Below are positions 1,445 to 35,917 of a DNA stretch of 64,000 bases, piece by piece. The notes under the pieces are model-generated. The model had not been told where the DNA came from and made no database searches. It saw only the letters and a program-made list of their open reading frames with translations. The translations under genes and the position numbers were made by a program. The stretch is taken from assembly GCA_030704615.1 (NCBI GenBank), contig CM060731.1, forward strand, positions 44,764,001 through 44,828,000, given 5' to 3'. The DNA comes from Takakia lepidozioides. Taxonomy: Eukaryota > Plantae > Bryophyta. Numbering within the stretch: the first letter of the stretch is position 1; each line of letters starts with the position of its first letter.

Positions 1445-2347
1445 CACACCCCTACCAACAGGGAGTCGATGTCCTCATCGACTTGTCCATTTTGTAGAAA
1501 CGAACATCCAAGTTGTGGCGTCCCACATCAAGGAGTTTGTTTCCACCCCATGGCATCCCATGGCAAAGAACCAAACCCCACACTTGACTCTACTCTCCAC
1601 TAGCTAGTTCGGCCGACTTCCTTCAAGTCTCGGCCAAGGGTGGAGCCTCTCCAGCTCCACCCAGTGCACTCTTCTTGGCCTACTTCAAGGCCAAGGAACG
1701 ATCCTCCCCGAGGATCGAATCGCCTTACTGCAACAACATTGCTTGCGATCGCTCATGATGCCGCTTTTGGCATCACCTTGAGCAAGGGTTCACCTGGAAT
1801 CCTCTTTGACTAGAAGATAACCTTGAACCAACCGTGCGCCCCAATCACTACAATTGGGTCCGCCTTGGAATGTTGGCCTGAGGTACGGGAACATGCCGAA
1901 GCCGCACTACGACTTCGTCCCGAGGCTACACGATTATAGTACGTGAATGGAAGCACGTAGCTTCCGCGTTAGCCCGCACTACAAGGCAACCCCCTCGGTA
2001 ACGCAGTTATAGTACGCGCACGCGCCAGGTGCGCACTAGCACGTGAACTCCCAAAGAAGTCGCAAGTTTCCTTGCCCCTTGGATGGGGGTCACCCGATTT
2101 CGGCACTACGCAAACACACGATTAACCAATTTACCTCTCCCACTTTTATAGCTAGCATGCATTCTACACACTAGCCAACCATACCATGCATCACCATTCC
2201 AAACAAAATAGGACGCACAACATTTGGAACCCATTTCCTTTATAACAAATTTTTGTACAATACAAGTTTTTGTAATCGGATTCCTAAGCTAGCTAAGCCG
2301 GGCTAAGCATGCATTTCCTCCCCCACGCTCCAAGGTTGATGTCCCCA

Positions 2348-5300
2348 TCAACGTTTTCTTCCGCTTTTGAGGTCGCCCTTCGAAAGCTGCAACCGCCTCG
2401 GATGCGTTTCCCATTTCTGAGGCACGCACCCAAGATGCCTCCACATGATGATAGCCCTTCCATTTGACGAGATACTCCGTTTCTCTCTTCTGAACCTCCT
2501 CGACTTAAGTATTGCCTCCACCTCGTACTCAGGTTCATTTTCATGATCCAACAGCATAGGTGGCGGACGCAACACTTGATGTCGATTCGGACGCGCTTCA
2601 TCTTTGAAGTAAGGCTTCAAAAGGGAGACATGGAATACTGGGTGAACCTTGCTGTTTGCCGGCAGCTCCAATTCATACACATCCTCATTCATAACCTTCC
2701 GAATGCGAAAGGGTCCCGCATACGGAGGTACGAACTTCGGACTCACTTCCGGAGGTAGTCGGAAATTCTTGATGTTCAACCAGACCTCCGTGCCTGCCTC
2801 AAACTTCACTTCCCTCCGCTTCCGATTCGCCTGCCTTTCATACCGTTTCCTAGCTTTGGCAATGTTGTACTTTGCGAGCTTCAACAAACGCTCGCGTTCT
2901 TCCAGTACTGCTACTGCCGGTTCCTCAACGTCCTGGGCGGCCAACTTGTCGACACCAGAGGTGCTTTTCCATAGACCAATACAAAAGGGGAAACTCCCCG
3001 TTGCGGAGTGTTCTGTGTTATTATAACAGAACTCTGCCGCGTCTAAGTGTTCCATCCAGTCTGATTGGTCTGCCGACACGTAATTCCGCAAGAATTGCTT
3101 CACTACGGAATTCACTCTTTCCGTTTGGCCGTCCGTCGTAGGTCGGAAGGCGGTGCTCATCTTCAGCCTCGTCCCCATCTTCTTCCAAAGTGTCCTCCAA
3201 AATTTACTCGTAAACTTTGGATCACGATCCGAGACAATATCCTTCGGGACTCCATGATGCTTTAAGACGTGGCAAAGTAAAGTCGCCCTGTCTCCTGCGC
3301 TTGCCGTCCTCTGGTGGGATGAAATGGCCCATTTTACTGAACCTATCCACCACCCATGATTGCATCGAATCCTTTTGACAGCGGCATAGCAGTCATGAAA
3401 TCCATCGAGACGCTTTCCCAAGTCCCCTCTGGAATCGGCAAGGGTTATAACAGCCCCGCTTGCTTTTTGTACTCGCTCCGGTTTTGTTGGCATGTGGTGC
3501 ATGTCTTGACATACTCCTCTGCCTCCTCCCTCAGTTTGGGCCAGAAATACTCTTTCTTCAAGAGTGCCGCAGTGCGCTTGGCTCCGTCGTGGCCCGCAAG
3601 CGGGCTATCATGGCATTCTCTCAAGGCTATCTCTGATCCCTCCCTTCGGCACATAGAGACGTTTTTGCTTATACCGGAGCAGTCCATTTTGCAAGTGGAA
3701 CTGCGATTTAACCCCCATTCTCAAGTCCTGCATCACGGACTTTGCCAGCTCATCCTTCCGGCAAGCCTTCCGGATCTTCCTTTGGAGCGCCGTCTCGCCC
3801 TTGTACACCAACAAGAGCTGTTGCTTTCTACTTAAAGCATCGGCCACCACATTGTCCCGTCCCGGTTTGTACTGGATATCCACGTCGAACACTGCCAAAG
3901 TATCTTGTCACCTAAGTTGTTTTGGGGACAACTTGGGCTGCGTGGCAAAATACTTCACCGTGACATTGTCGTGAACACCTTCACTGGGTTGGAACCAACA
4001 TAGTGGCGCCAAGCTCAAGGCAATGCACCACCGCCTTCATCTCTTTTTCGTGCGTCGGCCACCGTCGCTCCACTTCATTCAGTTTCTTACTTTCGTAAGC
4101 CACTGGACGTCCATCTTGCATAAGTACACACCCCCAATCGCGAAGTCCGATGCATCTGTATGAATCTCAAACGGACGATCGAACTCCGGGATTTTCAAGA
4201 CTGGAGCTTCCGTCATCCGCTGCTTCAATTCAGCAAAAGCTTGGCCACAAAATGTGTTCCATACCCAGACTTTGGATTTACACAGAAGGTCCGACAGCGG
4301 CCCCGCGATCTTGGCGAAATTTCTCACACTTCCGGTAATAGGAGGCGAGTCCTAGGAAGGATCGCACTCCCGGGACCGAAGTCGGAGGCTCCCAGTCCAA
4401 GATCGCCCTCACCTTTCTGTCATCCATTTTGATCCCATCCTGTGTAATCACATGCCCCAGGAACTCCACTTTTGTGACCCCGAATTCGCACTTTGAAGCT
4501 TTGGCATACAGCTTCCCTTCCCGCAATTTTTGGAACACCCTTTTGAGGTGCTCCAGGTGCTCCTCCTTTGTTTTCGAGTACACCAAGATGTCGTCGATGT
4601 ACACGATCACAAAGTCATCCAACCACTCCTGGAAAAGGCTGTTCATCAGCGTGCTAAATGTCGCTGGTGCATTGGTGAGCCCAAAAGGCATCACCAAGAA
4701 CTCATATGAACCATACCTTGTCCTGCACGCGGTCTTCTCCTCATCTCCTTCCGCCACCCGAATTTGGTGATAGCCGGAGCGCAAGTCGATCCGGCTGAAA
4801 TACTTCGCTCCTGCCAACCGATCGAAGAGGTCGTCGATCCTTGGCAAAGGGTACCGGTTTTTGATAGTCACCTTATTCAGAGCCCTGTATCGACACACAT
4901 CCGCAGCGTCCCATCCTTCTTGTCTGCAATAGCACCGGGGCTCCGTAAGGTGACTTACTTACTCGGCCGGATGTACCCCTTTGACATTAGATCCTTGAGC
5001 TGAGTCTTCAGCTCGACCAACTCTCTGTGGCTCAACCGGTAGGGCGCCTTGGCAGGCGGTTCCGATCCCGGTATCACCTCAATCTTGTGGTCAACTCCTC
5101 TTCGCGGTGGCAAGCCGCTTGGTAAATCCTCCGGCATCACATCCTGGTATCTCAAAATCCCCTTGATCCAATCTGGGCTCGGCTCCCCATCGCCTTCTCC
5201 TTTCACTTCTCTAATGTAAAGCAAAAACTGGGGCCCGTGTGCCTCCTCCACGGCCCACTCCCTTTGCTGACAGAAGGTTTATTCGCCCTCCCACGGATTT

Positions 5301-6887
5301 GGGCGTTTCTGACACTCGTAAAACCTCGCCACCATTCCCATGGCAGCGTGACTACTCTCTTGCGGCCATCTATGACCGCTCCGGATTTGCTCAAAAAGGT
5401 CATCCCCAAAATGAGATCCACTCCATCGATCTCGCAGATGGTGAAGTTCTCACGTCCCTCCCAACTCCCCAGTTGAAGGGGAACATCAATCACCAACCTT
5501 GTCGCCAACTGTGGTTCTCCTTTGGCAGAACGCACCTCAATAGAGGCCCCCACGTCACTTGTCGGGAGTCCCAGCTTTGTGCGTTGCCGGTGTCATGAAG
5601 GAGTGCGACGCTCCTGTGTCCACCAACAACGACACATTAGTTCCGATTATCCCATCCACGAACAATAACTGACTCCTTTTTCGTAAGGCGCCAGTTCCTG
5701 ATACAACTCACAAGAAAATTTGCCTACCTTGCAAGTCCTGGCGACCACCGCTTCCACCAAGCGACTGATGGTATCTTCCGACAGCTCCGTGGTCGCCCGA
5801 GTCATGTTCAATTGTCGGGGCTTCGTGCACTTCTTGGCCATGTGCCCGGGCTCCCCGCAATTGAAACACACTCCATCAAAGGTCGCCTTCTGTCCGCCAT
5901 AAGCCGCTCCACCCGCTTTTCTTTCGAAGCACCGGGTGCCGCCTTGACGTGTGAAGGCCCTCCCTTCGATTTCCACATGCCATGTCGCCGCGTGGCCTAT
6001 CCCACTTTTTTTCCGGTCGGAAGGAGTCACCTTCCCGCCGGGCCTTCTTGTGGTTCAGCTCCGTACGGCCTTGTCTCTCACCCCTAGGGACATCCGAGAA
6101 ACATTCAGCCCTCTCAATTGCCTCGTTCAAAGTCTTGGGTGGCTTCTCTCCTCCAACTTCCGCCTGGCCCATGGGGCCAGTCCCGCCACAAAGTTGAAGA
6201 CCATTTCTGGTTCTGCATGTCCGCGACTTCGAGCAACAGCACATTGAAAGCCTGGACATACCCCCGAATGTCATCTGTTTGCTTCAAATTCCTCATCTTG
6301 TCCCGGGCAAGCCAGGACGCGTTGAGGGGCACAAACTGTCTCTTCATCAATTCCTTGAACCCACTCCAGTTCAAGGTTTCCGGACTTGGACCTCGGTCGT
6401 GAAGGCGTTTCTGTCACCATTGTTGAGCATAGCCCCTCAAATAGGTGGGAGCCACTTCCACCGATCCTCGTCACTCAACTTGGCCGCCGGAAGTACTGCT
6501 CCAGCTCCAAGCCAGGTGTTGAGTGCCTTCCGATTTCGGACGCCCTCGAAGGTGCCGGGTTCCTTAGGCTTCACCTTAAACTTTGCCTTAGTGGAAGTGG
6601 CATTAGCCGCCTTCAACACGTTTTTCAACGTCCCGCCAAACTGCGCCAACAACCCTTCCCTTCCCAAAGGCTGCCGGCATGGGAGGCATCTCTTGGTTTC
6701 GGGAGCTCTCAAGGATTCCTCGGGCTCCGACTCCTCGGATTCCTCCCTCTTGGGCGGCCTCGTTTTCGGAAACATGCATCGCTTCCTCAAACGGCCGCCT
6801 CGGTGACACGCCGCCCCCATCGGGCTCACCGGGATCATCATCTTTTGGGCCGTTCCGCTTTCGCTTCGCTTCGGCTTGCCCCCCCAT
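2348..6887 (-). CDS. gag-pol polyprotein (frameshifted in this assembly): gag/CCHC, protease, RT, RNase H, integrase, chromodomain
   Basis: [14 protein letters not shown] knuckle; [11 protein letters not shown] protease; [11 protein letters not shown]...[11 protein letters not shown]; [11 protein letters not shown] RNase H; [13 protein letters not shown]...TDGQTERVN integrase; [11 protein letters not shown] chromodomain start. Confidence 0.92.
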
Positions 6888-6928
6888 GATGAGGCCAATC
6901 CCAAGGACGATCGCGTACTGAACTCTAA

Positions 6929-6940
6929 GCTCTGATACCA
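6929..6940 (-). promoter_or_regulatory. Primer binding site, tRNA-iMet
   Basis: Minus strand TGGTATCAGAGC, 2 nt downstream of the 5' LTR. Confidence 0.92.
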
Positions 6941-6942
6941 AG

Positions 6943-7670
6943 TGTCGCGCACCTCACTTCGGTAAGCTCCCCTTCAAGTCATAGTTACTCTCGCTTTGAT
7001 GCGCGCGCCTGACTCCAACCTGGCCGCCCCGGCCAACTTGGAGCTTCGGCTGCTCACCGGGACATAACGGTCCCCCCCTTCGCTTCCCTAAAAAACCCTC
7101 CACCTCATTGGGACTAGGAGAATTCCCTTTGGTAGATGGCAGTCCGGAACAGCTCCCCACTCTTTGGTCGCTTTCCGGCTCGCTCGCTTACTCACTAGTT
7201 TTTGGTCACCAACGGGCTTGCACCGTTCTCGGGGTTACTACTCTCCCTATATATACTTCTGTAGCTGTCCGCGGGGGTTTCCACAACCAGCCATGCCATT
7301 TTATGGCGAACCACCACGAAAATCCTCGACTCCGGTGATGAGTCGCGGTGAGTCTTGGCCCGCTCACCACGGCCCCTATGGACCGTGATGAGTCCCAAGA
7401 CTCCCCACGACTCCTACCACGAGGTCTCCGCCCCCATGGTGAGTCCTATGCCACCCCCACTAAGTCCCGCTAAGCTACCACCACCCCTTGTGGAGCCACC
7501 CCCCGCAAAACCCGGTGTGCGGCTCCACCTAGTGAGCGCCTCCGCTCCTGAGTGCCTTGGGCACTCAAGGGTGCTTCAGCCCCCATACCTATCGCTGCCG
7601 CTGCCCCCCACCACAGGGGCAGCCCCTCATGTGTCCCGACCCCCTGCCCTCAAGGCAAAGGGCCGCGACA
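6943..7670 (-). repeat. 5' LTR of chromovirus copy 1
   Basis: Matches 716-1444; adjacent to the PBS; TATA-like GTATATATAG on the minus strand near 7250. Confidence 0.95.
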
Positions 7671-8175
7671 CGGAGATGAATTGGCAATCGAATCATCATT
7701 TGGAGTATAATATAATTGACATGATAGTTGTGACTTTTGTTTCATCTCAAAAATTAATATCAAATATCGAATGAAATGTCTAACTTTGGCCCTGATTATT
7801 TTCGCAGGAATTTATGCAAGCATGTCGACTCATACTGGAGATGAGTAACGTGAAGGAGGCCATGGTTCTGGTTCTCTGTGACGAAGACGTATGGAACCTG
7901 TGGGAGGAAGTGTTCAAACAGTGGGAACAAGGAAAGCTTATTGATATTTTCGGGATTCAGTGCAAGGGTGAACAGCTACTGCTGAATAAAACCGCTATCG
8001 CGAAACTGCAAGGACTTAATAGCAGGCAGTTAAAAAGAGTGGCGGATAAAATCCTGAACAGAGACATTTGCATTCGGGGAACGAAATTCAAGGGCACGGA
8101 CAAATCCAAAAACACAATGAGCGCGTATATTGACCAAATGAAATTGCGACGGTTTATTATCGACGATGTAATGGA

Positions 8176-8659
8176 TGTTGTGCACCTAAGCATCGTGCCA
8201 CAACATATCTCGCTGTCCACCATACATTCTAAGCACACAATCCTAGAAAGTTATGCCACAATAGATAATGGAAGTGAACACACAATGGAAACACTCCACT
8301 CATGAATCCACTCAATCACATAAACTAAGTCAAGCCAAGGGCACCTTTGCTAAGGGAATCCACCCTACAAAGCCCTCACCACACTCCTTCTCAATACCTA
8401 GAGCTATGGAGGTGGGAGATGAGCCCTCCTCAACACTCACAAGGGGAAAATCCATCCCCATGTCCCAAGTGAGGTTTGTCCCAACACACAAAATATAAAT
8501 ATAAATATCCAAAATGTCCTAGTTAACTAGAAGTAGGTAATTCTAGTTAACCATGACTAAAACCATGACAGCTGTCGTGCACCTAAGCATCGTGCCACAA
8601 CATACATCGCTGTCCACCATACATTCTAAGCACACAATCCTAGAAAGCTATGCCACAAT
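8176..8659 (-). repeat. 3' LTR-like terminus with an 87-bp direct repeat (8176-8262 and 8573-8659)
   Basis: TGT(T/C)GTGCACCTAAGCATCGTGCCACAACATA...GCCACAAT occurs twice; PPT-like CTAGGGGGGCGA directly precedes it on the minus strand. Confidence 0.7.
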
Positions 8660-8904
8660 CGCCCCCCTAGCTGGTGATTAGGTCCCTCTAACACCTGATA
8701 GCTGACAAGTATCCACCTCAATAAAATCATCGTTTGGTCTTCAATCGCACATGTCCCAGTATCTAAAGTCAATAGATCAAGAGGTCGGGTGCAAAAGTAG
8801 CCCCATCGTTACTTGCCTTTGTGCAATCCATGATCTTCAATTAAGTATCCATGGCGTTGAGCTAGACCTTGGATCATTTGTCAATTCCACCATTGTCATG
8901 CCCA

Positions 8905-9060
8905 CTACCTATGTCCAAGGCATCGTGGACACAACCATTCTCCACTAGGAACCTCCTCAAGTGGCGGTGTGTCAAGCATCCCATGTGCCACCTCCTTGAG
9001 CATTTGTCACACACCAACATGGTCACGGCACCACCAACATGCCCACATAGCATGCAACGC
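8905..9060 (-). CDS. PHD finger (C4HC3) at the polyprotein C-terminus
   Basis: CMLCGHVGGAVTMLVCDKCSRRWHMGCLT, then after a frameshift PPLEEVPSGEWLCPRCLGHR-stop. Confidence 0.88.
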
Positions 9061-9299
9061 AACCCCGCAAGTACCACTACAAGGTTGGGATCTATCCTCC
9101 CATCCATATGTGGAAGGTGACATGGCGCACAATTGCGCACATGGTCCTTCCATACCATGCCATCTCAACCCTCCAGAATCAACACTCCTGAAGGCAACAC
9201 CTCCCGGACCCTTAGAATCACACGTCCTGCTGTGACATCCAAACTTGACGTCTAGGAGTTACCTTTTGTTTTCAAAGTTCATCTTTTTAAGTGCGGATT

Positions 9300-10010
9300 A
9301 TTCCCATATTTGATACACATAGTCCCCAGGGTGGAAACGCCGATCACCAGGCCGATATCCCCCTCCACGTATAATGGCGTACCTCAATGTGTCTTGGTGT
9401 TGGGCAATAGCAAGGTTCTCAAAAGCCATAGGCATGACTCTCTTGAACAACTCTGCCCGCTGGGCACATGCTTGTCCACACATCGGATCATCAAGGTTGA
9501 GAACTACTGCAGTCTCCTTGCGAATAGATGCAGGCAAATCTGGCTCTCGGCCAAAGAGAAGGAAATAAGGCAAGAACGAGGCAAGTGAAGTTTGTTTGCT
9601 AAACGTAGCCCATGGCCAACCAAGGTAGCTGAAGGTCCCAATCTCCTAAGTGTCCCTTCTGCAAGCCATACTTGTGCAAGCCATACTTGTGCAAGCCTCG
9701 CTTGACTGTTTGTACAACCCTCTCTGCCAGGCCATCAGCCTCGGGATGATCCCGAGAAGTAGTGCGGTGATCTATCAAGGCTTGCCCACACAAAGCCTGA
9801 AACTCCCCCAAGAACTCTCTCCTCTGGTCCGTGAGTACCTCGGCTGGAGCACCAAATTGGCTAAGCACTCGATCTAAGAATGCATACGCAGCCCCCTCAC
9901 TTGCCTTGTCAGGCAATGCCACCAGTTCAATCCACTTGGAGAAATGTTTCACCATCACCAGCACATACTTGTTATGGCGAATCGTTAGTGACAATGGGCC
10001 TGCAAAGAAC
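9300..10010 (-). CDS. DDE integrase core (degenerate; HHCC region missing)
   Basis: YVLVMVKHFSKWIE...FGAPAEVLTDQRREF...HPEADGLAERVVQTVKRGL; PYFLLFGREP. Confidence 0.88.
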
Positions 10011-10066
10011 CCTTAATCTTTTGGGGAACTACTTTAAAACTCATGTTCCTTCCGGAGGCCAGAATT

Positions 10067-11800
10067 CTATCTGAGCGGGAGACCATGGCGTACCAATCGC
10101 GCTCGTTGTGTTGGATGATGCACAAACCTCACTCGTCCATCCTCCCATACTCGGAGTAGGTGAGTCCCCTCCCACTTGAACCTCTTGGCTCGTTGTAGGA
10201 TCTGATCTCTCTCCTTAGCAGTCACACTGGCTGTTTTCTCTCTAGTACAAATATAGGCCAACAGTGCTGCATCTTCATGCACATCCTTAGCACCACTAAG
10301 CTCCTCACTGATCTCCGGATCATCATGCACACCATCTACATGACCAATGCTATGGGATGGACCAGCTTGAGCTCCCATTGCTAGGATGCACAAAAAGGCA
10401 GATGCTTGCCATCCTGGCACCATCTCCTCATCCGTCTCACCATGCCACCGAGCTCCAGTATCATCATGCTCGCTCGTGCATGGATTACGACTCAATCCAT
10501 CTGCATCCTGATTGACAATACCGGCTCGATGCACCACCTGAAAGTCGTATTCTTGAAGCATAAGTGCCCACCGTGCAAGCTTCCATGTAAGCTTGTCTGA
10601 CTCCAAACCACTTCAATGGTTGGTGATCCGTGACAAGGTGAAGATTGCCATAGAGGTAGCATCTGAAATGTGCCACTGCCCATACCGCCTAGACACTCCC
10701 CTTCATAGGAACTATACGTCGCCTCGGCATCATTGTTTGAGCGGCTAGCATATGCCACTACGAACTCTCTTCCCTCATCATCCATCTTTGTGTGCACTGC
10801 CCCAATCCCCAGCATACTCCAATCCGTATGTAGCTGGAAAGGCCGCCCCCGAATAGGCCGCCTCAGAATAGGTGCAGACATCAATCGAGCTTTGAGTTCC
10901 TCAAAGGCTTCCTCCTGCTCCTCCTCCCACTGCCACTCCTGACCCACCTTGGTCAACTTAGCAAGAGCCTCAATGCTGCTAAATCCCTTGACAAACCGTC
11001 GATAGTAGTTTGCCAACCCCATGAAAGCACGAACTCTGCTAACATCTATGGGGCATGGAATGCGTGCAATGGCCTCCACCTTCGTCTTTTGAACACCCAA
11101 TCCTCTAGGGTATATCATGTGGCCCAGATACTCAATCTGGTTGTGGAAGAACTTGCACTTCCCAGGGTGCAATTTCAACCCATGCACTCTCAAGCGCGCT
11201 CAAACACCACTGAAGGTGTCTCTCTCTCATGCTCCTCAACCGTAGCACTAAAGACGATGATGTCATCAATGTAACACCGGGCAAAGTCTAGCCCCACGAG
11301 AATCCTATCCATAACCCTCTGAAACTCTGCAGGAGCATTCTTCAACCAAACGGTAGGAAGCGCCATTGGTACAAGCAATCCTTCCCATGTTGGTCAATCC
11401 CCCAGAATGCCGTCTTTTGCTTGTCAGACTCTTTGATTGGCAACTGGTGGTAACCGGATCGCAAATCCAATGTGCTAAACACCTTCGCATGCCCAATGGC
11501 ATCAAAGATTTCCTCTGGAGTTGGCATGACATATCTATCGGACTTAGTCTGACGGTTCACAGGACGATAGTCCCCACACATCCTTCTTTCTATCCATCGC
11601 CATAGATATCCTTCTTAGTTGGCATCACCGTTGCCGAGGCATACTCCCCGCCTGACAACTCCACCAATCCAGCTTCGAACAACTCCATAGTCCGTGACTG
11701 AATCAATGACCTCTCTCATGTCACTATAACCGGTAGGGCCTTCGAAAGATTGGCATGTCACTTGCCAAATCATACGAATCTCCTGACCCTTCAAACTCCC
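10067..11800 (-). CDS. Reverse transcriptase and RNase H (frameshifted)
   Basis: MCGDYRPVN...[14 protein letters not shown]...LPFGLKNAPAEFQRVMD...CYIDDIIVFS; FQLHTDWSMLGIGAV...VVAYASRS...YSSYEGE; VTDHQPLKW; LARWALMLQEYDF. Confidence 0.92.
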
Positions 11801-12359
11801 AAATCCTTCAAACCGAAGGCAAGCAATTTCTATAAGCCCTTAGAATTGTTGATCCTCCGTCTCTCTCCTCCGGTGACTGTAGGTCCAATATCTGGTTCCC
11901 AATTGTCCTCAGTGATGCAACCTTGGGTACATCAGGCTTGGGGGGTAGGAAGAGCGAATCATTTGGGTTGCTAGATAGCAACCTCTTGGGCCTTGTCCGT
12001 CCATCTGACTGTGGGCGTAGCCTCCACTTGCTCTGCTCTGCTATAACCCTTGAGAACATCCTCTGGAAGAAACATTCCACCTCTTCAAAAACATTAGTCA
12101 CCACCTTGGCCTCCACTGATCCTCAGTGTATGGCTCTCCCCACTTCCTCATATTGTTGTTTGAGAGATCCAAGGACTCTCTCTTTCCGCATCTCTCCACT
12201 CTGCCATGGGTGTTTGCACCCCTGATCCTGTGCTCGCCCCCACTCACTGCCTCAACCGTCCCGTGTGGCAGAGGGGATACCTATACCAAATGGGAGTGTA
12301 GAGTAGCCACCACTGTCTGCAACCTCCGTTGCTCAGCCATGCACAAGCCATGACTCATG

Positions 12360-13270
12360 TCAAGCTTTAGATCCATAGCTTGACCCAAGACATGTCGGCG
12401 TGATGTCTGGCACAACTGTAGTGCCCGTGGCAAATCCCATTGCCCGCTCTCGCTCATCTACATGGGCTCCACCACTTGCTGTAGCACACTGTCCCAATCA
12501 ACCCAGGACCGATGTCTCGAAGCATGACGAGGGAAAGCTCATGACGTAGGCAGGCCGCACTGGCTACCCCACTCGATTTACCACTGCTAGAGGTAGACGG
12601 TCATCATGTCGCACCCTCTGTGGTTGCCTCCCTTGGTCCAAAATGCCCTCAACTGTGAGATTGGGTGGCCGTTGAATGGAATCGTATGCTCTCTTGAGCA
12701 GCTCTGGTGGTGCAAGATTGGTCCACCACAATCGAGGTCGATACGCTCGTGATCCCACCGCTGTTGCATCCAATAGCACCGCCGATCCAATCCAAGACCG
12801 CACCTGATGCACACTGGCCATAACCCTGGCCCGAGAGTCCCCCATAGGAACATTCTCCAAGATATAGACTAGAGGTTGCACTTGCCTCGTCTGCAAGTCA
12901 CAACACACCCTCAACATCTCCCAAAACAAATGTGATCGTGCATCATGCAAGCCGTTCCCATGACCTGCGGAGAGTGTCCTTGGCAAGGCCATCCAGCTTT
13001 CATCAAGTCAGTGGCACCATGCCGGTCCAAATCAGCCGTCCCCAACAAGGTAATGTCTGTTGGCAAGGCCTTTTGATATCCTTGAATTGTTGAGAGAGGC
13101 AACAACTCAGGATACCGGTGTGTGAGCAAGACGATATGGCGCATAGAAATACGCCGAGCTATCTCATCCTTCTCCACATACAAGTACTTGCATACTTTAA
13201 TCCCAACTTGCAACACTCCTGCAAGCCCAGTGCTCATGTCTCCAAACAGGTCTAGCAAACAATCCCTGAG
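12360..13270 (-). CDS. C5 cytosine DNA methyltransferase domain, DNMT3-like (degenerate)
   Basis: Motif I LDLFGDMSTG; II YLYVEKD; IV AGWPCQGHS; RSHLFWEMLRV; VI YILENVP; VIII RAYRPRLWWTNL; IX DERERAMGFATGTT; X RHVLGQAMDL. Motifs IX and X were read manually at ~12370-12465. Confidence 0.9.
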
Positions 13271-13639
13271 TCAGGTGGTTGCCATGTAATGGGCACTGTA
13301 TCCAAAGAGCTAACTGAGGAGGTCCAGTGATGTCACTGAACTCCCCTCACTCACCAATGGATAGGCCTCCTGCCTGCTGGTGCACCACTCGTCTGCTACT
13401 CGATGCAAATCCTAACTGTACCCCACAGTGTAATATGAACAGACACATGAGGAAGCAAATCAGCCTTGTATGCCAATTATTTGTCCTCATCAGGTGGTGG
13501 CCTATTATATGCATGGCTATTGCCCTCCAAGAGCTCACCACCCCAAGCCACCACCCCTGAGAATGCAGCCAATGTGGGCATCATGTTCCTATGATCCACC
13601 GCTACATTCCCAATAAACCGCACTGGGAGTAGTGCACAC

Positions 13640-14040
13640 CGCCTCCCTAACTGCCATTCCGGCCTGTAGGATGTCGTTTCCTCGTTTCCCCTCCCAAAAA
13701 GTCCAAAGTAAAGCCCATCGGGTATAACACGCCCCATCAACAAGCACATCATAAGACATCACTCCGTTAATGGCTTTTAGCTCTCATCACAGAGCCATCT
13801 GTAGGATGATCTGGCTGCAATCGAATGAAGAGCTCATGGCGTGTAATCCCTCGTGCCTTCTCCAAACCGCCCAAAGATGTTTGAATTTGGAAAAGACAAG
13901 GCTCCAAGTCCGCCTCTGTAAGGGCCTAGCCGACAATTGTTGCTCTCCCCAACATCAATGGCTCTACTCCCAAGTCCAACAAGACCCGTAGTGGCCTATA
14001 CCTCTTTCCAGTTGGGCCACCCAATTGAAATACTCCATCC
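13640..14040 (-). CDS. Aspartic protease of the DNMT-bearing element (degenerate)
   Basis: PLRVLLDLGVEPLMLG (Asp codon 13974-13976; expected DSG) and a downstream YDVLV motif near 13750. Confidence 0.7.
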
Positions 14041-14197
14041 TGATTGTCCACCAGGACTACCCCAGGAGTCACCAGCTGTGCTCAATGGCTGGCCTAGCTG
14101 GCAACTCCTGCAACCTTGCAGCTGCCGCTTGCCATGGCGCAGCTGTGGCTATTTTCACCCTTGAATCCAAGGCATCCATGCACTGCACCTGATCCGC

Positions 14198-14925
14198 TGT
14201 CGCACACCTCAGTTCGGTAAACTCCCCTTCAAGTCATAGTTACTCGCTTTGATGCGCGCGCCTGACTCCCAACCTGGCCGCCGGGCCAACTTGGAGTTTC
14301 GGCTGCTCACCGGGACATAACGGTCCCCTTCCGCTTCCCTCTAAACCCTCCACCTATTTGGGACTAGGAGAATTCCCTTTGGTAGATGGCAGTCCGGAAC
14401 AGCTCCCCACTCTTTGGTCGCTTTCCGGCTCGCTCGCTTACTCACTAGTTTTTGGTCACCAACGGGCTTGCACCGTTCTCGGGGTTACTACTCCCTATAT
14501 ATACTTCTGTAGCTGTCCGCGGGGGTTTCATAACCAGCCATGCCATTTTATGGCGAACCACCACGAAAACCCTCGACTCCCGGTGGTGAGTCGCGGTGAG
14601 TCTTGGCCCACTCACCGCGGCCCCAATGGACCGTGATGAGTCCCAAGACTCCCCACGACTCCCACCTCGAGGTCTCCACCCCATGGTGAGTCCTATGCCA
14701 CCCCCACTAAGTCCCACACTAAGCTACCACCACCCCTTGTGGAGCCACCTCCACACCGCAACCCGGTGTGCGGGGCTCCACCTAGTGAGCGCCTCCGCCT
14801 CCTTGAGTGCCTTGGGCACTCAAGGGTGCTTCAGCCCCCCATACCTATCGCTGCCGCTGCCCCCACCACAGGGGCAGCCCCTCATGTGTCCCGACCCCCT
14901 GCCCTCAAGGCAAAGGGCCGCGACA
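14198..14925 (-). repeat. 3' LTR of chromovirus copy 2
   Basis: TGTCGCAC...CGCGACA; matches 19981-20702. Confidence 0.95.
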
Positions 14926-15829
14926 CACACCCCTACCAACAGGGAGTCGATGTCCTCATCGACTTGTCCATTTTGTAGAAACGAACATCCAAGTTGTGGC
15001 GTCCCACATCAAGGAGTTTGTTTCCGTACCATGGCGTCCCATGGCAAAGAACCAAACCCCACACTTGACTCCACTCTCCACTAGCTAGTTCGGCCGACTT
15101 CCTCCAAGTCCCGGCCAAGGGTGGAGCCTCTCCAGCTCTCTCCCAGTGCACTCTTCTTGGCCTACTTCAAGGCCAAGGAACGATCCTCCCCGAGGATCGA
15201 ATCGCCTTACTGCAACAACATTGCTTGCGATCGCTCATGATGCCGCTTTTGGCATCACCTTGAGCAAGGGTTCACCTGGAACCCTCTTTGACTAGGAAGA
15301 TAACCTTGAACCAACCGTGCGCCCCAATCACTACAATTGGGTCCGCCTTGGAATGCTGGCCTGAGGTACGGGAACACGCCGAAGCCGCACTACTACTTCG
15401 TCCCGAGGCTACACGATTATAGTACGTGAACGGAAGCACGTAGCTTCCGCGTTAGCCCGCACTACAAGGCAACCCCCTCGGTAGCGCAGTTATAGTACGC
15501 GCACGCGCCAGGTGCGCACTAGCACTGGAACTCCCAAATGAGGCGCAAGTTTCCTTGCCCCTTGGATGGGAGTCACCCGATTTCGGCACTGCGCAAACAC
15601 ACGATTAACCCAATTTACCTCTCCACTTTTGTAAGCTAGCATGCATTCTACACACCAGCCAACCACACCATGCATCACCATTCCAAACACAATAGGACGC
15701 ACATATTTGGAACCCATTTCCCTTATCACAATTTTTGTACAATACAAGTTTTTGCAATCGGATTCTTGAGCTAGCTAAACCGGGCTAAGCATGCATTTCC
15801 TCCCCCACGCTCCAAGGTTGATGTCCCCA

Positions 15830-18800
15830 TCAACGCTTCTTCCGCTTTTGAGGTCGCCCTTCGAACGCTGCAAACTGCCTCGGATGCGTTTTCCCATTTC
15901 TGAGGCACGCACCCAATGCCTCCACAAGATGATAGCCCTTCCATTTGACGAGATACTCCGTTTCTCGGTTCTTGAACCTCCTCGACTTAAGTATTGCCTC
16001 CACCTCGTACTCGGGTTCATTTTCATGATCCATCAGCATAGGTGGCGGACGCAACACTTGCTGCCGATTCGGACGTGCTTCATCTTTGAAGTAAGGCTTC
16101 AAAAGGGAGACATGGAATACTGGGTGCACCTTGCTGTTTGCTGGCAGCTCCAATTCATACACATCCTCATTCATAACCCTCCGAATGCGAAAGGGACCCG
16201 CATACGGAGGTACGAACTTCGGACTCATTTCCGGAGGTAGTCGAAATTCTTGATGTTCAACCAGACCTTTGTGCCTGCCTCAAACTTCACTTCCCTCCGC
16301 TTCCGATTCGCCTGCCTTTCATACCGTTTCCTAGCTTTGGCAATGTTGTACTTTGCGAGCTTCAACAAACGCTCGCGTTCTTCCAGTACCGCCGCTACTG
16401 CCGGTTCCTCAACGTCCTGGGCGGCCCAACTTGTCGGCACCAGAGGTGCTTTTCCATAGACCAACACAAAAGGGGAAACTCCCGTCGCGGAGTGTTCTGT
16501 GTTATTATAACAGAACTCTGCCGCGTCTAAGTGTTCCATCCAGTCTGATTGGTCTGCCGACACGTAATTCCGCAAGAATTGCTTCACTACGGAATTCACT
16601 CTTTCCGTTTGGCCGTCCGTCGTAGGTCGGAAGGCGGTGCTCATCTTCAGCCTCGTCCCCATCTTCTTCCAAAGTGCTCTCCAGAATTTACTCGTAAACT
16701 TTGGGTCGCGGTCCGAGACAATATCCTTCGGGACTCCATGATGCTTTAAGACGTGGGCGAAGTAAAGTCGCCCTGTCTCCTGCGCAGTAGCCGTCTCCTT
16801 GGTGGGGATGAAATGGGCCATTTTACTGAACCTATCTACCACCACCATGATTGCATCGAATCCTTTTGACAGCGGCATAGCAGTCATGAAATCCATCGAG
16901 ACGCTTTCCCAAGTCCCCTCTGGAATCGGCAAGGGTTGTAACAGCCCCGCTTGCTTTTTATACTCGCTCCGGTTTTGTTGGCATGTGGTGCATGTCTTTA
17001 CATACTCCTCTGCCTCCTCCCTCAGTTTGGGCCAGAAATACTCTTTCTTCAAGAGTGCCGCAGTGCGCTTGGCTCCACCGTGGCCCGCAAGCGGGCTATC
17101 ATGGCATTCTCTCAAGAGACTATCCCTGATCCCTCCCTTTGGCACATAGAGACGTTTTTGCTTATACCAGAGCAGTCCGTTTTGCAAGTGGAACTGCGAT
17201 TTAACCCCCATTCTCAAGTTCTGCATCACGCACTTTGCCAGCTCATCCTTCCGGCAAGCCTTCCGGATCTTCCTTTGGAGCGCCGTCTCGCCCTTGTACA
17301 CCAACAAGAGCTGCTGCTTCTACTTAAAGCATCGGCCACCACATTGTCCCGTCCCGGTTTGTACTGGATATCCACGTCGAACACTGCCAAAGTATCTTGC
17401 CACCTAAGTTGTTTTGGGGACAACTTGGGCTGCGTGGCAAATACTTCACCCGTGACATTGTCCGTGAACACCTTCACTGGGTTGGAACCAACATAGTGGC
17501 GCCAGAGTTCAAGGCAATGTACCACCGCCTTCATCTCTTTTTCGTGCGTCGGCCACCGTCGCTCCACTTCATCAGTTTCTTACTTTCGTAAGCCACTGGA
17601 CGTCCATCTTGCATAAGTAACACCCCCAATTGCGAAGTCCGATGCATCTGTATGAATCTCAAACGGACGATCGAACTCCGGGATTTTTAAGACTGGAGCT
17701 TCCGTCATCCGCTGCTTCAATTCAGCAAAAGCTTGGCCACAAAATGTGTTCCATACCCAGACTTTGGATTTACACAGAAGGTCCGACAGCGGCCCCGCGA
17801 TCTTGGCGAAATTTCTCACATACTTCCGGTAATAGGAGGCGAGTCCTAGGAAGGATCGCACTCCCCGAAGTCGGAGGCTCCCAGTCCAAGATCGCCCTCA
17901 CCTTTCTGTCATCCATTTTGATCCCATCCTGTGTAATCACGTGCCCCAAGAACTCCACTTTTGTGACCCCGAATTCGCACTTTGAAGCTTTGGCATACAG
18001 CTTCCCTTCTTCGTAATTTTTGGAACACACCCTTTGAGGTGCTCCAGGTGCTCCTCCTTTGTTTTCGAGTACACCAAGATGTCGTCGATGTACACGATCA
18101 CAAAGTCATCCAACCACTCCTGGAAAAGGCTGTTCATCATCGTGCTAAATGTCGCTGGTGCATGGTGAGCCCAAAAGGCATCACCAAGAACTCATATGAA
18201 CCATACCTTGTCCTGCACGCGGTCTTCTCCTCTCACTTCTCTAATGTAAAGCAAAAACTGGGACTCGTGTGTCTCCTCCACGGCCCACTCCTTTGCTGAT
18301 AGAGGTTTATTCGCCCTCCCACGGATTTGGGCGTTTCCGACACTCGTAAAACCTCGCCACCATTCCCACATGGCAGCGTGACTACTCTCTTGCGGCCATC
18401 TATGACCGCTCCGGATTTGCTCAAAAGGTCATTCCCAAATGAGATCCACTCCATCGATCTCGCAGATAGTGAAATTCTCACGTCCCTCCCAACTCCCCAG
18501 TTGAAGAGGAACATCAACGCCAACCTTGTCGCCAACTGAGGTTCTCCTTTGGCAGAGCGCACCTCAACATAGAGGCCCCCACGTCACTTGTCGGGAGTCC
18601 CAACTTTCGCGCCGCCGCCGGCGTCATGAAGGAGTGCGACGCTCCTGTGTCCACCAACAACGACACATTAGTTCCGGATATTATCCCATCCACGAACAAT
18701 AACTGACTCCCTTTTCGTAAGGCGCCAGTTTCCTGATACAACTCACAAGAAAATTTGCCTACCTTGCAAGTCCTGGCGACCACCGCTTCCACCAAGCGAC

Positions 18801-19925
18801 TGATGGTATCTTCCGACAGCTCCGTGGTCGCCCGAGTCATGTTCAATTGCCGGGCTTCGTGCACTTCTTGGCCATGTGCCCGGGCTCCCCGCAATTGAAA
18901 CACACTCCATCAAAGGTCGCCTTCTGTCCGCCATAAGTCGCTCCACCCGCTTTTCCTTTCGAAGCACCGGGTGCCGCCTTGACGTTTGAAGGACCTCCCT
19001 TCGATTTCCACGTGCCATTTTCGCCGCGTGGCCTATCCCACTTCTTTTCCGGTCGGGAGGAGTCACCTTCCCGCCGGGTCTTCTTGTGGTTCAGCTCCGT
19101 ACGGCCTTGTCTCTCACCCTTAGGGACATCCGAGAAACATTCAGCTCTCTCAATTGCCTCGTTCAAAGTCTTGGGTGGCTTCTCCTCCAACTTCCGCCTA
19201 GCCCATGGGGCCAGTCCCGCCACAAAGTTGAAGACCATTTCTGGTTCTGCCATGTCCGCGACTTCGAGTAACAGCACATTGAAAGCCTGGACATACCCCC
19301 GAATGTCATCTGTTTGCTTCAAATTCCTCATCTTGTCCCGGGCAAGCCAGGATGCGTTGAGGGGCACAAACTGTCTCTTCATCAATTCCTTGAACTCACT
19401 CCAGTTCAAGGTTTCCGGGCTTGGGCCTCGGTCCGTGAAGGCGTTTCTGCCACCATTGTTGAGCATAGCCCCTCAAATAGGTGGGAGCCACTTCCACCCG
19501 ACTCCTCGTCACTCAACTTGGCCGCCCGGAAGTACTGCTCTAGCTCCAGGAGCCAGGTGTTGAGTGCCTTCCGGTTTCGAAACGCCTCGAAGGTGCCGGG
19601 TTCCTTAGGCTTCACCTTAAACTTTGCCTTGGTGGAAGTGGCATTAGCCGCCTTCAACACGTCTTTCAACGTCCCGCCAACTGCGCCAACAACCCTTCCC
19701 AAAAGGCTGCCGGCATGGGAGGCATCTCTTGGTTTGTCGGAGCTCTCAAAGATTCCTCGGGCTCCGACTCCTCGGATTCCTCCTGCGCTCTGAGCGGCCT
19801 CGTTTTCGGAAACATTAATCGCTTCCTCAAACGGCCGCCTCGGTGACACGTCGCCCCCATCGGGCTCACCGGGATCATCATCTTTTGGGCCGTTCCGCTT
19901 TCGCTTCGGCTTGGCCCGACCCCAT
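15830..19925 (-). CDS. gag-pol of copy 2 (RT N-terminus deleted)
   Basis: Same motifs as copy 1; integrase ORF 16225-17307 with HHCC and WESVSMDF; chromodomain [27 protein letters not shown]. Confidence 0.92.
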
Positions 19926-19980
19926 GATGAGGCCAATCCCAAGGACGATCGCGTACTGAACTCTAGGCTCTGATACCAAG

Positions 19981-20702
19981 TGTCGCACACCTCAGTTCGG
20001 TAAACTCCCCTTCAAGTCATAGTTACTCGCTTTGATGCGCGCGCCTGACTCCCAACCTGGCCGCCGGGCCAACTTGGAGTTTCGGCTGCTCACCGGGACA
20101 TAACGGTCCCCTTCCGCTTCCCTCTAAACCCTCCACTTTTTTGGGACTAGGAGGATCCCTTTGGTAGATGGCAGTCCGGAACAGCTCCCCACTCTTTGTG
20201 TCGCTTTCCGGCTCGCTCGCTTACTCACTAGTTTTTGGTCACCAACGGGCTTGCACCGTTCTCGGGTTACTACTCCCTATATATACTTCTGTAGCTGTCC
20301 GCGGGGGTTTCATAACCAGCCATGCCATTTTTATGGCGAACCACCACGAAAACCCTCGACTCCCGGTGGTGAGTCGCGGTGAGTCTTCCCACTCACCGCG
20401 GCCCCAATGGACCGTGATGAGTCCCAAGACTCCCCACGACTCCCACCTCGAGGTCTCCACCCCATGGTGAGTCCTATGCCACCCCCACTAAGTCCCACTA
20501 AGCTACCACCACCCCTTGTGGAGCCACCTCCACCGCAACCCGGTGTGCGGGGCTCCACCTAGTGAGCGCCTCCGCCTCCTTGATTGCCTTGGGCACTCAA
20601 GGGTGCTTCAGCCCCCCATACCTATCGCTGCCGCTGCCCCCACCACAGGGGCAGCCCCTCATGTGTCCCGACCCCCTGCCCTCAAGGCAAAGGGCCGCGA
20701 CA
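19981..20702 (-). repeat. 5' LTR of chromovirus copy 2
   Basis: Adjacent to the PBS; matches 14198-14925. Confidence 0.95.
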
Positions 20703-21399
20703 TCCGCTATCCCCGCAAATAGTGCCGATGCATCACCACTATCACAGAATCTAGCCGCTAGTCTGAACACAACAGCTGGCCGGATCCCCGACATTGCAAT
20801 GGACATTGCAGAAAATAATGGAACTTGGCAAACCGCCGAGCCGCCCCCAACAATGTACTGGCTGCACCTTGCTTTGCAGCACCACCCACTGGCATTTCCC
20901 GAGCCACACCCAACTCTCCCCAATGACACTCGTGGCTCTACCTCTGACACACTTGGGCGAGCAGGTGCCATTGATGGCGTAGATGGCACTGTTTCAGCCA
21001 ATGTAAAGGACTTGTGGAAGCCTTGTCTGACGACTTGCTTCCCCTCTTTGTGGATCAAAATCCACATCCGCTCCTCTTGGCTCAGAAGCACGCGTTGCTA
21101 CTCGAGTGACAGCAGCTACAGAGTCCATATGCAATGGTCCTGCAAGTGCGGCTCCACACATGAAGCCCATACCAATCTGGTCTTCCCTAGGCATAGGAGG
21201 TTGTGCAGGTGGGGCTTGAACCTCAAGCCTTGGAGCTGGCGCAACATGAGTAGTGGCCATGGCAGCAAGACGTTGCTCTAGCTGGGCAAGTCTATCCACC
21301 ATGCCTTGGTCATGACCTTGACCTTGACCCTATGCTCCTTGGTTTTGGTTACGTCCTCCACCCCGACCTCTGCCTCCTCTACCTCTCTGGACTACATTG

Positions 21400-22685
21400 C
21401 CTCATCCTCAGCCATCATTGTTCCCTTGGAACTGGTCTGGCCGTAGCTCAGGATGCAAGTCATAACAATGGGCCTCTTCATGCCCATACTTGCCACAATG
21501 CCCACATTGTAGTTGTGTAGGTTGTGCCTGTGCCGGCCCTTTGCATCTTTCCGGGCAATCTCTCTTAACATGGGGTCCTCCACAATCCCAACATGTCATA
21601 CCCGACTGTTGTTGGCCTGAGAATGAAGGAAGTGACCTTTGCAATTGAGATCCTCTCGGCCCTTCCTTGGGCTTTGCCTGAGCCCCCTTGTTGTCTTGAG
21701 CACGTTGGGGTAGTGGTTGTTGTTGGCTAGGAGCCCCACTTCATTGTGTCTCCTGACCAAACCCCACCATGACCACTCGCTCCTCCACCATATTGAGCTC
21801 TATCCGCTCTGCCAGCAAAAACACATTTGCTAAGGTGGGTTGGTCCACTTGTAGGAGAGTTGCATCCCGTACCCTTCTCCTCAGCTCCTTGTCCAGGATC
21901 CCATACCAGAACTGGACTGCCTGAGCTTCTGTAACCCCTTGGGTTACGTTTATCAAGCGCCTCATGCGAGTGTAAGCCTCCCTCAAACTCTCGGCAGGCT
22001 TTCGTTGGAACTCTTGCAAACTCCGCAATTTCTCCGTCCTTATCCCCTGGTAGTTTCTCCTTAACTCCTCGAAGAACTTCACAACTAGGTTAAAGGCAGG
22101 CACGGGTGTTGGTGCTACAATAGGAGCTTGGGTGGACTTCCCAGCTCAAGTTCCACTCGACGTCCCACTGCTACTTGCAGAAGCTACCGGTGTAGCTACC
22201 GATGTCACCACTGCCCTTGTGTCTCTAGTGATGGAGACATAGTCAGGTGACCAATACATCTGCCATTCCTCAATCTCCACCTCATGTCCTCGCCTAAACT
22301 CATGGTAGTCATCCATGGGCAGCCCCTCAAGGTGCTGAAACAGCCCCTTCCACGCCATAAAAGGCGTAAACAGTTGTGGATTGCGCATCTGCTATAAATC
22401 ACACCAACTATCAAACTCTTGTATGAAATCGTCAAGCTCGATGGTGTCCACAGCTCCAGAGTACCGACGTGGCCCCTTGGTAGCTCCATACATTTCCTCC
22501 ATCGTATCCCACAACAATGGCACGGAAATGGCTTGCACCCTCAGCGAGAATTCTCCTAACTCTGAGTTTGAACCTTCCTCAGAAGACACTGAAGGTGAAG
22601 GTGGCCTAAACCGCACACCTTGTCTTGTACACCCACTAGTATCGCTGGTGCTCGTACCGGCACTCTCCTCAGCAACTAGTGGCAC
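21400..22685 (-). CDS. Gag of the DNMT-bearing element with two zinc knuckles
   Basis: LQEFQRKPAESLREAYTRMRRL...QFWYGILDKELR capsid-like region; CWDCGGPHVKRDC and CGHCGKYGHEEAHC knuckles. Confidence 0.8.
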
Positions 22686-23269
22686 CTCCGTGATGAAAAC
22701 TCACAACCACACCTGTTGTAAACATGTCTCTAATCCCCCTTGGCTTATGGCTTAGACTACTAGGTTCGTAACATAAACCTGCACCTGCATCCACCGCAAG
22801 CACTCATATGGTCTGCTGGTCATCAACCCAGCCTCACCATAAGAGAAACAATGGTGGTTTGACTGGTCATCACCCCAGCCTCACCACCGACAGCATGCTC
22901 TAGGATTGGCCGGTGATCAAATCCGGACCAACCTCCTATGAAAACAAGCGCCCACACAAAACTGACATGGCGCACAGTTAAGCATGCAAGTGTGGGGGGG
23001 ATCCAAACACAAGAAAATCAAGACAGTAACTCCCTCACACCAATAAAAACACTCCACAGTGTCGCTCCTGCAAGGACACCCCAGCCCAAACCCGGACTGA
23101 CTCTTGCCTCCACCTACGGAAAGGTTTTGGCCTACATAGAGGGTGGAAGACTACGAGGAAGAGAGACTAAAGCAATTCCTAATCCTAGAATGCTCTCATC
23201 CCACTAGTCTCCCCCTATGTCTAAACGCTCTTGCTCATGACCAACAGACATAACTACCTTCCAGGGTCT

Positions 23270-23605
23270 CTCAAATAACTCTCCAAGAGCCCTCAAGATG
23301 TTTCTCAAACAATCTCACTAAGGCCCCCAAAGCCTGCCAAATCAAGGACCCCAAAAAGTCCTTCAGACAAGTTGCCAAAGACTCCTTCAGCTCGCCAAAT
23401 ATTAGCCTCCAAGGACCCCAAAATAGTCCTCCAAATAGCCCTCCAAAGCTCCAAATGTTTGCCAAATATTGGTCTTCAAAGACCCCCAATAGTCCTCCAA
23501 ACAGTCCTCCAAACACCCCTTCAAGAGCTCTTCAAGTGTCTTACAAAAGCTCCTCAAAGGACCCCCGAAAGATCCTCCAAAGGCAATACTCCTCCAGATA
23601 CACCC
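23270..23605. repeat. Degenerate low-complexity tandem repeat (CTCCAAA/CCCCAA-based)
   Basis: Repeated ctccaaatagtc / ctccaaacagtc / gacccccaa words. Confidence 0.55.
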
Positions 23606-23609
23606 TAGA

Positions 23610-23900
23610 TGTCATACACTTTTAATGAAAACGTATGGTAGGCAAAGTCTCTCCACTTGTATCCATACACAGTCCACAAAATTGTATGGTGGGGCAGATG
23701 GAGCCCATACTCTGTTCACAAAAACGTATGTCGGGCAGAGGGGGCCCATACTCTGTTCACAAAAGAGTATGTTGGGCAGAGGGGTTCCATACTTTGATCA
23801 CAAAAGTGTATGATGGGCAGAGGGAGCCCATACACAGTTTCTTGAAGAGTATGGAGACTAGGGTTTGTAGAGTATAGTAAGAAACACCTTCTTCATGGTA
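23610..23900 (-). repeat. Possible 3' LTR of a third, truncated LTR element, containing ~6 copies of a ~41-bp unit
   Basis: Unit CCCATACTCTGTTCACAAAA-GTATG--GGGCAGAGGGG; TGTCATA at 23610; PPT-like TTAGGGGGGAAGA on the minus strand at ~23901-23913. Confidence 0.5.
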
Positions 23901-24832: not shown

Positions 24833-24953
24833 TTGAGTTTGGTGAACCTCGGCTGTCCAGTGGACGTTCTTGTTCACTTTCCTGGTGTCGGATTTTCCAA
24901 TGCATTGTATTGTTCCCTTTTTATCATCCTAAGTATTAACGACCCTCTGGCAG

Positions 24954-35868: not shown

Positions 35869-35917
<49 letters not shown>

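Follow-up and report, generated by a model that had tools for sequence, protein, structure and literature searches.

Since 2018 it has been asked why retrotransposons carry a silencing enzyme of their hosts, the known cases lying in algae that are hard to manipulate. The question is raised again by a locus in the moss Takakia lepidozioides. In the 64,000-nucleotide stretch analysed here (contig CM060731.1, positions 44,764,001 to 44,828,000; the window), an earlier note had reported the motifs of a C5-cytosine methyltransferase in order on the minus strand, between the protease and the reverse transcriptase (RT) of a Ty3/gypsy element. What is this domain, does it belong to the element, and what might it do there?

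A DNMT3-type domain in a decayed Ty3/gypsy element

Three-frame translation of positions 11300-14300 revealed the methyltransferase motifs in canonical order on the minus strand: I (LFGD, 13249), II (YVEK, 13180), IV (WPCQ, 12991), VI (ENV, 12857), VIII (RPRLWW, 12740) and X (GQAMD, 12385). The domain occupies 12330..13261 (-), between the decayed aspartic protease and RT. A search with the DNMT fragment gave 9 intact relatives among 723 candidates, at 53-68% identity, and tblastn matched 13261-12399 of the window to intact relatives with E values of about 1e-90 (1e-87 to 2e-91), confirming the motif order and placement first described. The Pfam profile PF00145, suggested as a check, matched the open fragment of the domain, but weakly (E 0.0037, 17.2 bits, under the cut-off of 22 bits). 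The DNMT3-like identity was borne out by the intact relative P0002, whose nearest solved sequences were DNMT3A (6e-12) and DNMT3B (1e-9), then DRM-type enzymes (1e-8 to 1e-4) and HhaI (4e-3), and whose AlphaFold model (pLDDT 90.9) best matched DNMT3A (Foldseek E 5.7e-19, TM 0.84 by target). In the Atlas, the P0011 domain first matched a PF00145 cluster of 57 members, mainly from Streptophyta, and this may be the cluster to which P0011 itself belongs. Decay of this copy had also been recognized, from frameshifts and from the FGD of motif I. We found frame shifts near 12970 and at 12520-12400 together with stops at 12566 and 12500, and the G of motif I is kept in 32/32 other relatives of the same domain order. 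The window copy is dead; the element family is old and abundant.

The rest of the element could be traced along the minus strand by comparison with intact relatives. A conserved block of the 5' leader lies at 22898..22926 (93% over 29 nt to the leader of the intact element L081). A decayed gag with zinc knuckles, the first part of ORF1, follows at 20703..22646 (tblastn with residues 14-611 of P0011, the main piece being about 50% identical; weak PF03732); this gag, absent from the earlier note, is separated from the remainder of ORF1 by a nested chromodomain Ty3/gypsy element foreign to the DNMT element (14198..20702, -). The insertion has LTRs at 14198-14925 and 19981-20702 that are 98% alike, a 5-bp target duplication (TCCGC at 14193-14197 and 20703-20707) and Pfam matches to gag, INT, SH3 and Chromo. 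Beyond it come the decayed protease (13653..14078; tblastn 45-47% to P0010/P0011/P0019, the protease of relative P0014 matching Asp_protease_2 at E 0.0012), the DNMT, and then ORF2, onto which that of L081 maps in seven pieces. Its decayed domains are RT and RNase H (10605..11907; tblastn with L081 ORF2, 40-77% in five pieces; RT_RNaseH_2 2.5e-22), a linker with a DDE integrase (9300..10606; rve 1e-11) and, at the end, a PHD finger (8920..9060; PF00628 E 0.0011, below the cut-off, with L081 ORF2 homology reaching down to 8920). Three cluster members of 1319-1329 aa run from Gag and zinc knuckle through protease (PR) and DNMT and then end; such Gag-PR-DNMT proteins are collinear with 22646-20723 and 14078-12230 of the window, and the intervening gap is the nested chromovirus. 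Sibling copies in the host were followed as Logan contigs; those of run X1 numbered 25,828 on 7700-14190, and 30/30 bins were covered in X1, X2 and X5, a contig depth without power to rank the domains of the element.

The neighbouring sequence is rich in other repeats. The nested element and 716-7670, which sits 0.5 kb past the 3' end of the DNMT element, are two copies of one chromodomain Ty3/gypsy element, 94-96% alike, both with TG…CA LTRs and 5-bp target duplications (TCCGC and CGGAG, respectively). A CACTA-type transposase with long open frames lies at 29269-32668 (-; Transposase_21, DUF4218, DUF4216), and two NIF/FCP1-like phosphatase frames lie in repeat-rich DNA at 24218-24832 (+) and 39817-41127 (+). 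A pseudouridine synthase frame (49629-50381, -; PF00849, 1e-22) stands beside a 342-aa frame at 50418-51446 without a Pfam match; such a match was also missing for frames at 37744-39099 (+, 451 aa), 34494-35561 (-, 355 aa) and 62258-63196 (+, 312 aa). The last of these is part of a repeat that occurs twice (62694-63315 and 63380-64000), and relatives of the repeat are found in inverted orientation at 34227-36544.

Family range, trees and selection

With E below 1e-30, a search of representatives returned 269 clusters, each defined at 50% identity. Named relatives with the PR-DNMT-RT order came from Marchantia polymorpha, Calypogeia fissa, Sphagnum fallax, S. troendelagicum, Riccia sorocarpa and Mesostigma; M. 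polymorpha has many such genes, several of 1278-1281 aa, and a Marchantia paleacea fragment contains the DNMT part. Relatives in Marchantia, Calypogeia, Riccia and Sphagnum substantiate the view that land plants carry a DNMT element. A second order, RT-RH-DNMT-INT-PHD in one ORF, was found in Scenedesmus, Haematococcus, Chromochloris, Cymbomonas and Chlamydomonas eustigma, with 79 complete examples among the proteins examined. No vascular plant was named among the matches, most of which are unnamed and were scored only for the candidates sharing most words. Neither viral contigs (searched with P0002, P0223 and P0264) nor genome contigs (P0362) gave a match.

The earlier note had held that an element-encoded enzyme would be refuted by siblings lacking the domain together with insertion boundaries of its own, or by a one-off capture nearly identical to a host DNMT3/DRM exon. 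Neither was seen. Among 80 metagenome loci, most of them from a single family with its nearest named proteins in Sphagnum, PR lay upstream in 63/80 and RT downstream in 51/80 (both in 42, all seven domains in 11), RNase H just before the DNMT was found in 0/80, and the linkers around the DNMT were homologous; these loci were found via the DNMT, so that DNMT-less siblings could not appear. In P0010, P0011 and P0019, Pfam gave only gag and PF00145, and 17-19/26 long relatives had rve and Integrase_H2C2 with no recombinase family reported.

Some further records concern the wider set. P0074 (RH-DNMT-INT-PHD) ends with an extra Tudor-like domain (PF21743, 6e-8). L081 (CADCWO010000201.1), an intact plant-type element on a 9285-nt contig, is filed in a Synechococcales genome bin, and the name of the related DNMT P0362 comes from an Obscuribacterales bin; in both cases contamination from a eukaryote is likely, which could be mistaken for gene transfer.

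Trees of the two enzymes, proposed as a check, were concordant. A FastTree analysis of 203 DNMT domains, made up of the window and what remained of 290 full-length domains after reduction at 80% identity, separated every PR-DNMT-RT row from every RH-DNMT-INT row (0.989) and placed the window as sister to a Marchantia-Calypogeia-Sphagnum group (0.998). An RT-RNaseH tree of 88 rows showed the same split by architecture (SH-aLRT 85 and 97), and the window RT-RNaseH was 79% identical to a Marchantia copy. Since the outgroups were two chromoviruses, host DNMT3, DRM and Klebsormidium sequences being left out, the trees fit one capture with relocation or two captures alike. P0015 and P0022 are gag-only and were removed from later alignments.

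Between lineages, DNMT dN was 0.29-0.57 and dN/dS about 0.11-0.17 where computable, ratios that are rough because dS is near saturation. For the pairs WIN-L004, L034-L004 and L034-L010, DNMT dN was 0.29-0.31 and dS 1.7-2.7, resembling gag and PR. Comparisons inside the decayed family gave pN/pS of 0.54-0.93, higher than between lineages, as expected after insertion. Judged by these substitution patterns, the DNMT is under purifying selection and has long been retained between lineages. The domain is almost certainly a selected, fixed part of the element family, and the view that it is an element-encoded, intronless and long-selected component of a Ty3/gypsy-type element, related in kind to KnitGypsy-Dnmt3, holds.

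A conserved stop codon and split terminal repeats

The earlier note envisaged a polyprotein and proposed to test for a single open PR-DNMT-RT-RH-INT-PHD frame. Such a frame does not hold in this subclade, where a conserved stop, not mentioned in that note, lies at 11973 of the window. TAG followed by CAA CCC at 11965..11973 (-), between DNMT and RT, is a candidate readthrough site, in register with the stop of intact L081 (L081 ORF2 residue 22 maps to 11907). The window was aligned with 44 loci in which the DNMT ends close to the start of RT. A stop occupied one and the same codon column in 45/45 rows, compared with at most 7/45 in the other 217 columns, and the RT was in frame after it. As 42/44 loci are one L001-type family (the remaining rows are L034, L066 and the window), only about five independent lineages are represented, L081 included.

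The context of the stop was TAR-CAA-CCN in 43/45 rows. L081, only 50% identical in its DNMT, is intact, with 1162 codons of Gag-PR-DNMT, TAG CAA TCA and then 1047 codons of RT-RH-INT-PHD in frame; L034 reads TAG CAA CCA. These two less-decayed lineages thus have exact UAG-CAR-YYA, described as the type I readthrough motif of plant viruses and the tobamovirus signal (PMC3542737), while the CAA CCC of the window and the L001-type family falls short of full CARYYA. Other Ty3/gypsy elements are also reported to use in-frame stops to hold Pol at a lower level than Gag (10.1101/2022.12.06.519325). A conserved RNA stem behind the stop was not supported: the stem was strong in L081 only, with z -4.4 compared with -0.2 to -2.0 in the other five, and the alignment across lineages yielded no long stem in common. 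No stop lies between DNMT and RT in deeper-branching relatives such as P0210, P0338 and P0291, so that the stop looks derived. For Marchantia and other named proteins the stop context was taken from where the proteins end. We consider it probable that the stop is read through at a low rate, and its conservation, with UAG-CAR-YYA in two lineages, indicates that Gag-protease-DNMT is likely the main product.

Behind ORF2, also on the minus strand, a polypurine tract (PPT, 8660..8672) directly precedes the 87-bp repeat B1 (8573..8659), which ends in GACA; the same tract stands before B1 in L032, L060, L064 and L074 and before the B-like segment of L081. B1 is joined by GACA-GC-TGTC (8567..8576, a strandless palindrome also present in L081 and the predicted integrase attachment site) to repeat A2 (8263..8570), a copy of the element's 5' end. 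A2 was assigned by position, this segment being 88-92% identical to A1 in L032, L058, L060, L064 and L074. Repeat B2 (8176..8262), 95% identical to B1, forms the 3' end (…ACA), and flank contigs of runs X1, X2 and X5 stop at 8175. The complete order A1-ORFs-PPT-B1-A2-B2 was found in L032, L058, L060, L064 and L074. A1 was not found in the window, where A2 scored against 22640-26500 no better than shuffles. Short degenerate tandem repeats occur at 23343-23833, just upstream of the leader and at the expected site of A1.

Overall, the layout is A-ORFs-PPT-B-GC-A-B with termini TGTC and GACA, 4-bp target duplications and no ordinary LTR pair, as seen in loci of the PR-DNMT-RT type, from which all repeat and end data come. 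The duplications were exact in 7/9 scorable rows (6/8 distinct sites), with one mismatch in 2; L058 was not scorable. B1 and B2 were 92.3% identical within a copy versus about 90% between copies, and private variants were common to the pair, which indicates that both derive from one template in each cycle. By eye, the sequence after A1 did not start with TGG, which speaks against a canonical tRNA primer site; no tRNA genes were found in the 64-kb window.

The split ends and the palindromic junction suggest integration via the cutting of a circular intermediate. The repeat unit B-GC-A would act as the LTR and the cDNA ends would join as A|B (the A2|B2 junction); the integrase would then cut the internal palindrome after each CA, leaving two-base overhangs and yielding the permuted A-ORFs-B-GC-A-B insertion. 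Processed retroviral ends typically carry two-base overhangs, by established integrase chemistry. Cutting of a palindromic 2-LTR junction is within the reach of HIV-1 integrase (PMC1905944). A symmetric 2-LTR circle also predicts the mirror form A-B-GC-A-ORFs-B, however, which occurred in 0/26 5'-end rows, and the circle model does not account for why only one side would be cut. A 1-LTR circle might have given rise to the short form A-ORFs-B, present in 12 rows, but this reading was dropped: one 3' flank is common to L021 (short) and L076 (long), and the short form is explained by collapse during assembly or by B-B recombination. Nor was the circular assembly of L081 taken as proof of a circle. 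On this sequence evidence we hold the circle route to be about evenly balanced between true and false. Permuted ends of this kind suggest that the DDE integrase follows an unusual route of integration, and would probably defeat search tools that rely on paired LTRs.

Possible roles of the methyltransferase and comparison with known systems

These features can be assembled into a working model. ORF1 would encode Gag, protease and the DNMT3-type methyltransferase up to the conserved stop, and low-rate readthrough would add RT-RNaseH-integrase-PHD, so that the DNMT is made at the level of Gag and RT and integrase at a few percent. Readthrough would thereby set a high DNMT-to-RT ratio, the DNMT would be packed into particles in Gag-like amounts, and the protease would free it there. 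The enzyme could then mark new cDNA de novo, likely at CG sites, and the copy would arrive methylated, which would either shield it or pre-set its silencing. Isolated SymbioDIRS-Dnmt3 domains are reported to methylate CG de novo in yeast (PMC5890265). The CpG observed/expected ratio of the element (0.44-0.52) equals in its depletion that of the CACTA neighbour (0.43) and so has no bearing on self-methylation. We lean slightly towards this whole chain, a readthrough-controlled, particle-borne DNMT3 that would methylate the element's own cDNA.

Alternatively, the DNMT may be made with Gag, enter the nucleus and act in trans or at the insertion site, methylating its own or other repeats and so limiting copy number or shaping chromatin where a PHD-guided integrase lands. 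Both ideas are raised in the discussion of PMC5890265, the predicted abundance of the enzyme exceeds the need of a single cDNA, and the PHD reader on ORF2 is retained in most long relatives. However, every long protein examined has the DNMT joined to Gag-PR or to Pol, a linkage that speaks for action within the particle, and the DNMT has no targeting domain of its own. We regard the nuclear role as unlikely.

A second possibility is that the domain is retained because it binds DNA or plays a structural part, shielding the palindromic attachment site or the cDNA, for instance, and that catalysis is of secondary importance. The only Gypsy DNMT tested, that of Klebsormidium, showed no activity in yeast, a result described by its authors as inconclusive (PMC5890265); DNMT3B likewise failed in yeast. 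Motif IV reads EC instead of PC in 68/126 RH-DNMT-INT and 8/32 PR-DNMT-RT domains. Yet both clades show almost no variation at the catalytic Cys, the Glu of ENV, the two Arg of motif VIII and the Gly of motif I that binds SAM: 125-126/126 RH-DNMT-INT domains keep the Cys, the Glu and both Arg, and PR-DNMT-RT domains have the Cys in 29/32 (3 gaps) and the Glu in 31/32. Motif VI of RH-DNMT-INT proteins (P0109, P0235, P0284 and others) is often ENT or ENA, with Cys, Glu and Asn invariant, and the EC-type domains of this order are possibly a distinct catalytic-loop type. A mainly non-catalytic role seems improbable.

The amounts of DNMT and Pol would be set otherwise if RT-RH-INT-PHD were expressed by splicing or re-initiation. 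An ATG at codon 3 after the stop makes re-initiation possible in the L001-type family, and gene models from Marchantia (P0280, P0288, P0369, P0392, P0385) and Sphagnum (P0294) join DNMT to RT or RNase H across the stop region. The junctions of these models differ, though, and they are apparently predicted introns that skip the conserved stop. Moreover, the first Met after the stop is at codon 117 in L081, inside RT, and none precedes codon 48 in L034, and lineages whose DNMTs are about 50% identical have retained both the frame and the CAA context. Readthrough remains the preferred reading, and expression by either of these routes is quite doubtful. Finally, the window copy might on its own have captured an exon of a host DNMT3 or DRM. 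This reading, for which we found no supporting point, is refuted by the family data (269 clusters, the same DNMT position in dozens of loci, congruent DNMT and RT trees, no DUF3444 or introns, and a canonical rather than DRM-permuted motif order) and has practically no probability left.

More broadly, and only tentatively, a green-lineage-wide clade of PHD-finger Gypsy elements may have kept a DNMT3 since before the chlorophyte-streptophyte split and relocated it within the element genome. Its land-plant branch may have set the enzyme ahead of a readthrough stop, giving it capsid stoichiometry in each particle, and may integrate by an obligate cut of an internal palindrome in circular cDNA, so far known only as a side reaction of retroviral integrases. 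In the model plant Marchantia polymorpha, full-length Gag-PR-DNMT frames are annotated as hypothetical genes, among them Mp4g09160, Mp5g06330, Mp5g06860, MpVg00370 and MpVg00540, which makes activity, readthrough and cDNA methylation directly testable. Such element genes also inflate DNMT counts in bryophyte annotations.

Among known systems, canonical Ty3/gypsy elements have in common with this family the order gag-PR-RT-RH-INT, the PPT and target duplications within 4-6 bp, but their ends are two copies of one LTR and not A and B. DIRS elements use a tyrosine recombinase and lack a protease. Membership of the DIRS/PAT/Ngaro group was therefore ruled out by PR, rve/Integrase_H2C2, 4-bp target duplications and the lack of a recombinase family, although SymbioDIRS-Dnmt3 and PAT/Ngaro-type DIRS resemble the window family in split direct repeats and, as described in PMC5890265, a retroelement-borne DNMT3. 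Troyka, described with CG…CG termini and 3-bp target duplications in animals only (PMC12440569), was excluded by the TGTC…GACA termini and 4-bp duplications. Host plant DNMT3 (PpDNMT3a/b) has a DNMT3-type catalytic domain in canonical order with a C-terminal DUF3444 (PMC6453930); the element domains show no DUF3444 and are sited between PR and RT, and host DNMT3 or DRM identity was rejected for want of DUF3444 and of a permuted motif order.

As for the stop, it would limit polymerase relative to structural protein as in TMV-type UAG-CAR-YYA readthrough (PMC3542737) and in Tj1, Tosmo1-3 and Tcry1, whose reported in-frame TGA lies between gag and PR (10.1101/2022.12.06.519325); here TAG comes after Gag-PR-DNMT, placing the accessory enzyme on the abundant side. 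EpiLTR/DAM-LTR elements likewise combine a DNA methyltransferase with a chromatin reader, but theirs is an adenine or a DNMT4-related cytosine methyltransferase with a chromodomain, and the preprint sets them apart from 'streptophyte Gypsy-DNMT3' (bioRxiv 10.64898/2026.05.21.726589). That preprint and PMC12344493 mention 'streptophyte' element-borne DNMT3, citing de Mendoza et al. 2018.

The closest likeness is to KnitGypsy-Dnmt3 of Klebsormidium nitens, whose DNMT is described as part of Pol and whose repeats are DIRS-like (de Mendoza et al. 2018, PMC5890265); the comparison rests on the published description, no named Klebsormidium protein being among the matches listed. In both, a DNMT3-type domain without introns or motif rearrangement lies within the Gypsy coding region and is under purifying selection, and both have DIRS-style repeats in which two A flank the ORFs and two B flank A2. 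They differ in that the KnitGypsy DNMT is in one ORF with RT and RNase H, whereas a conserved stop intervenes here, and in that the window family occurs in liverworts and Sphagnum, its sister architecture in chlorophytes. The available description of KnitGypsy-Dnmt3 mentions no PHD, target duplication, palindromic junction or readthrough. In the literature searched, which excluded subscription journals and Repbase, we found neither a land-plant family nor the stop nor this integration geometry described.
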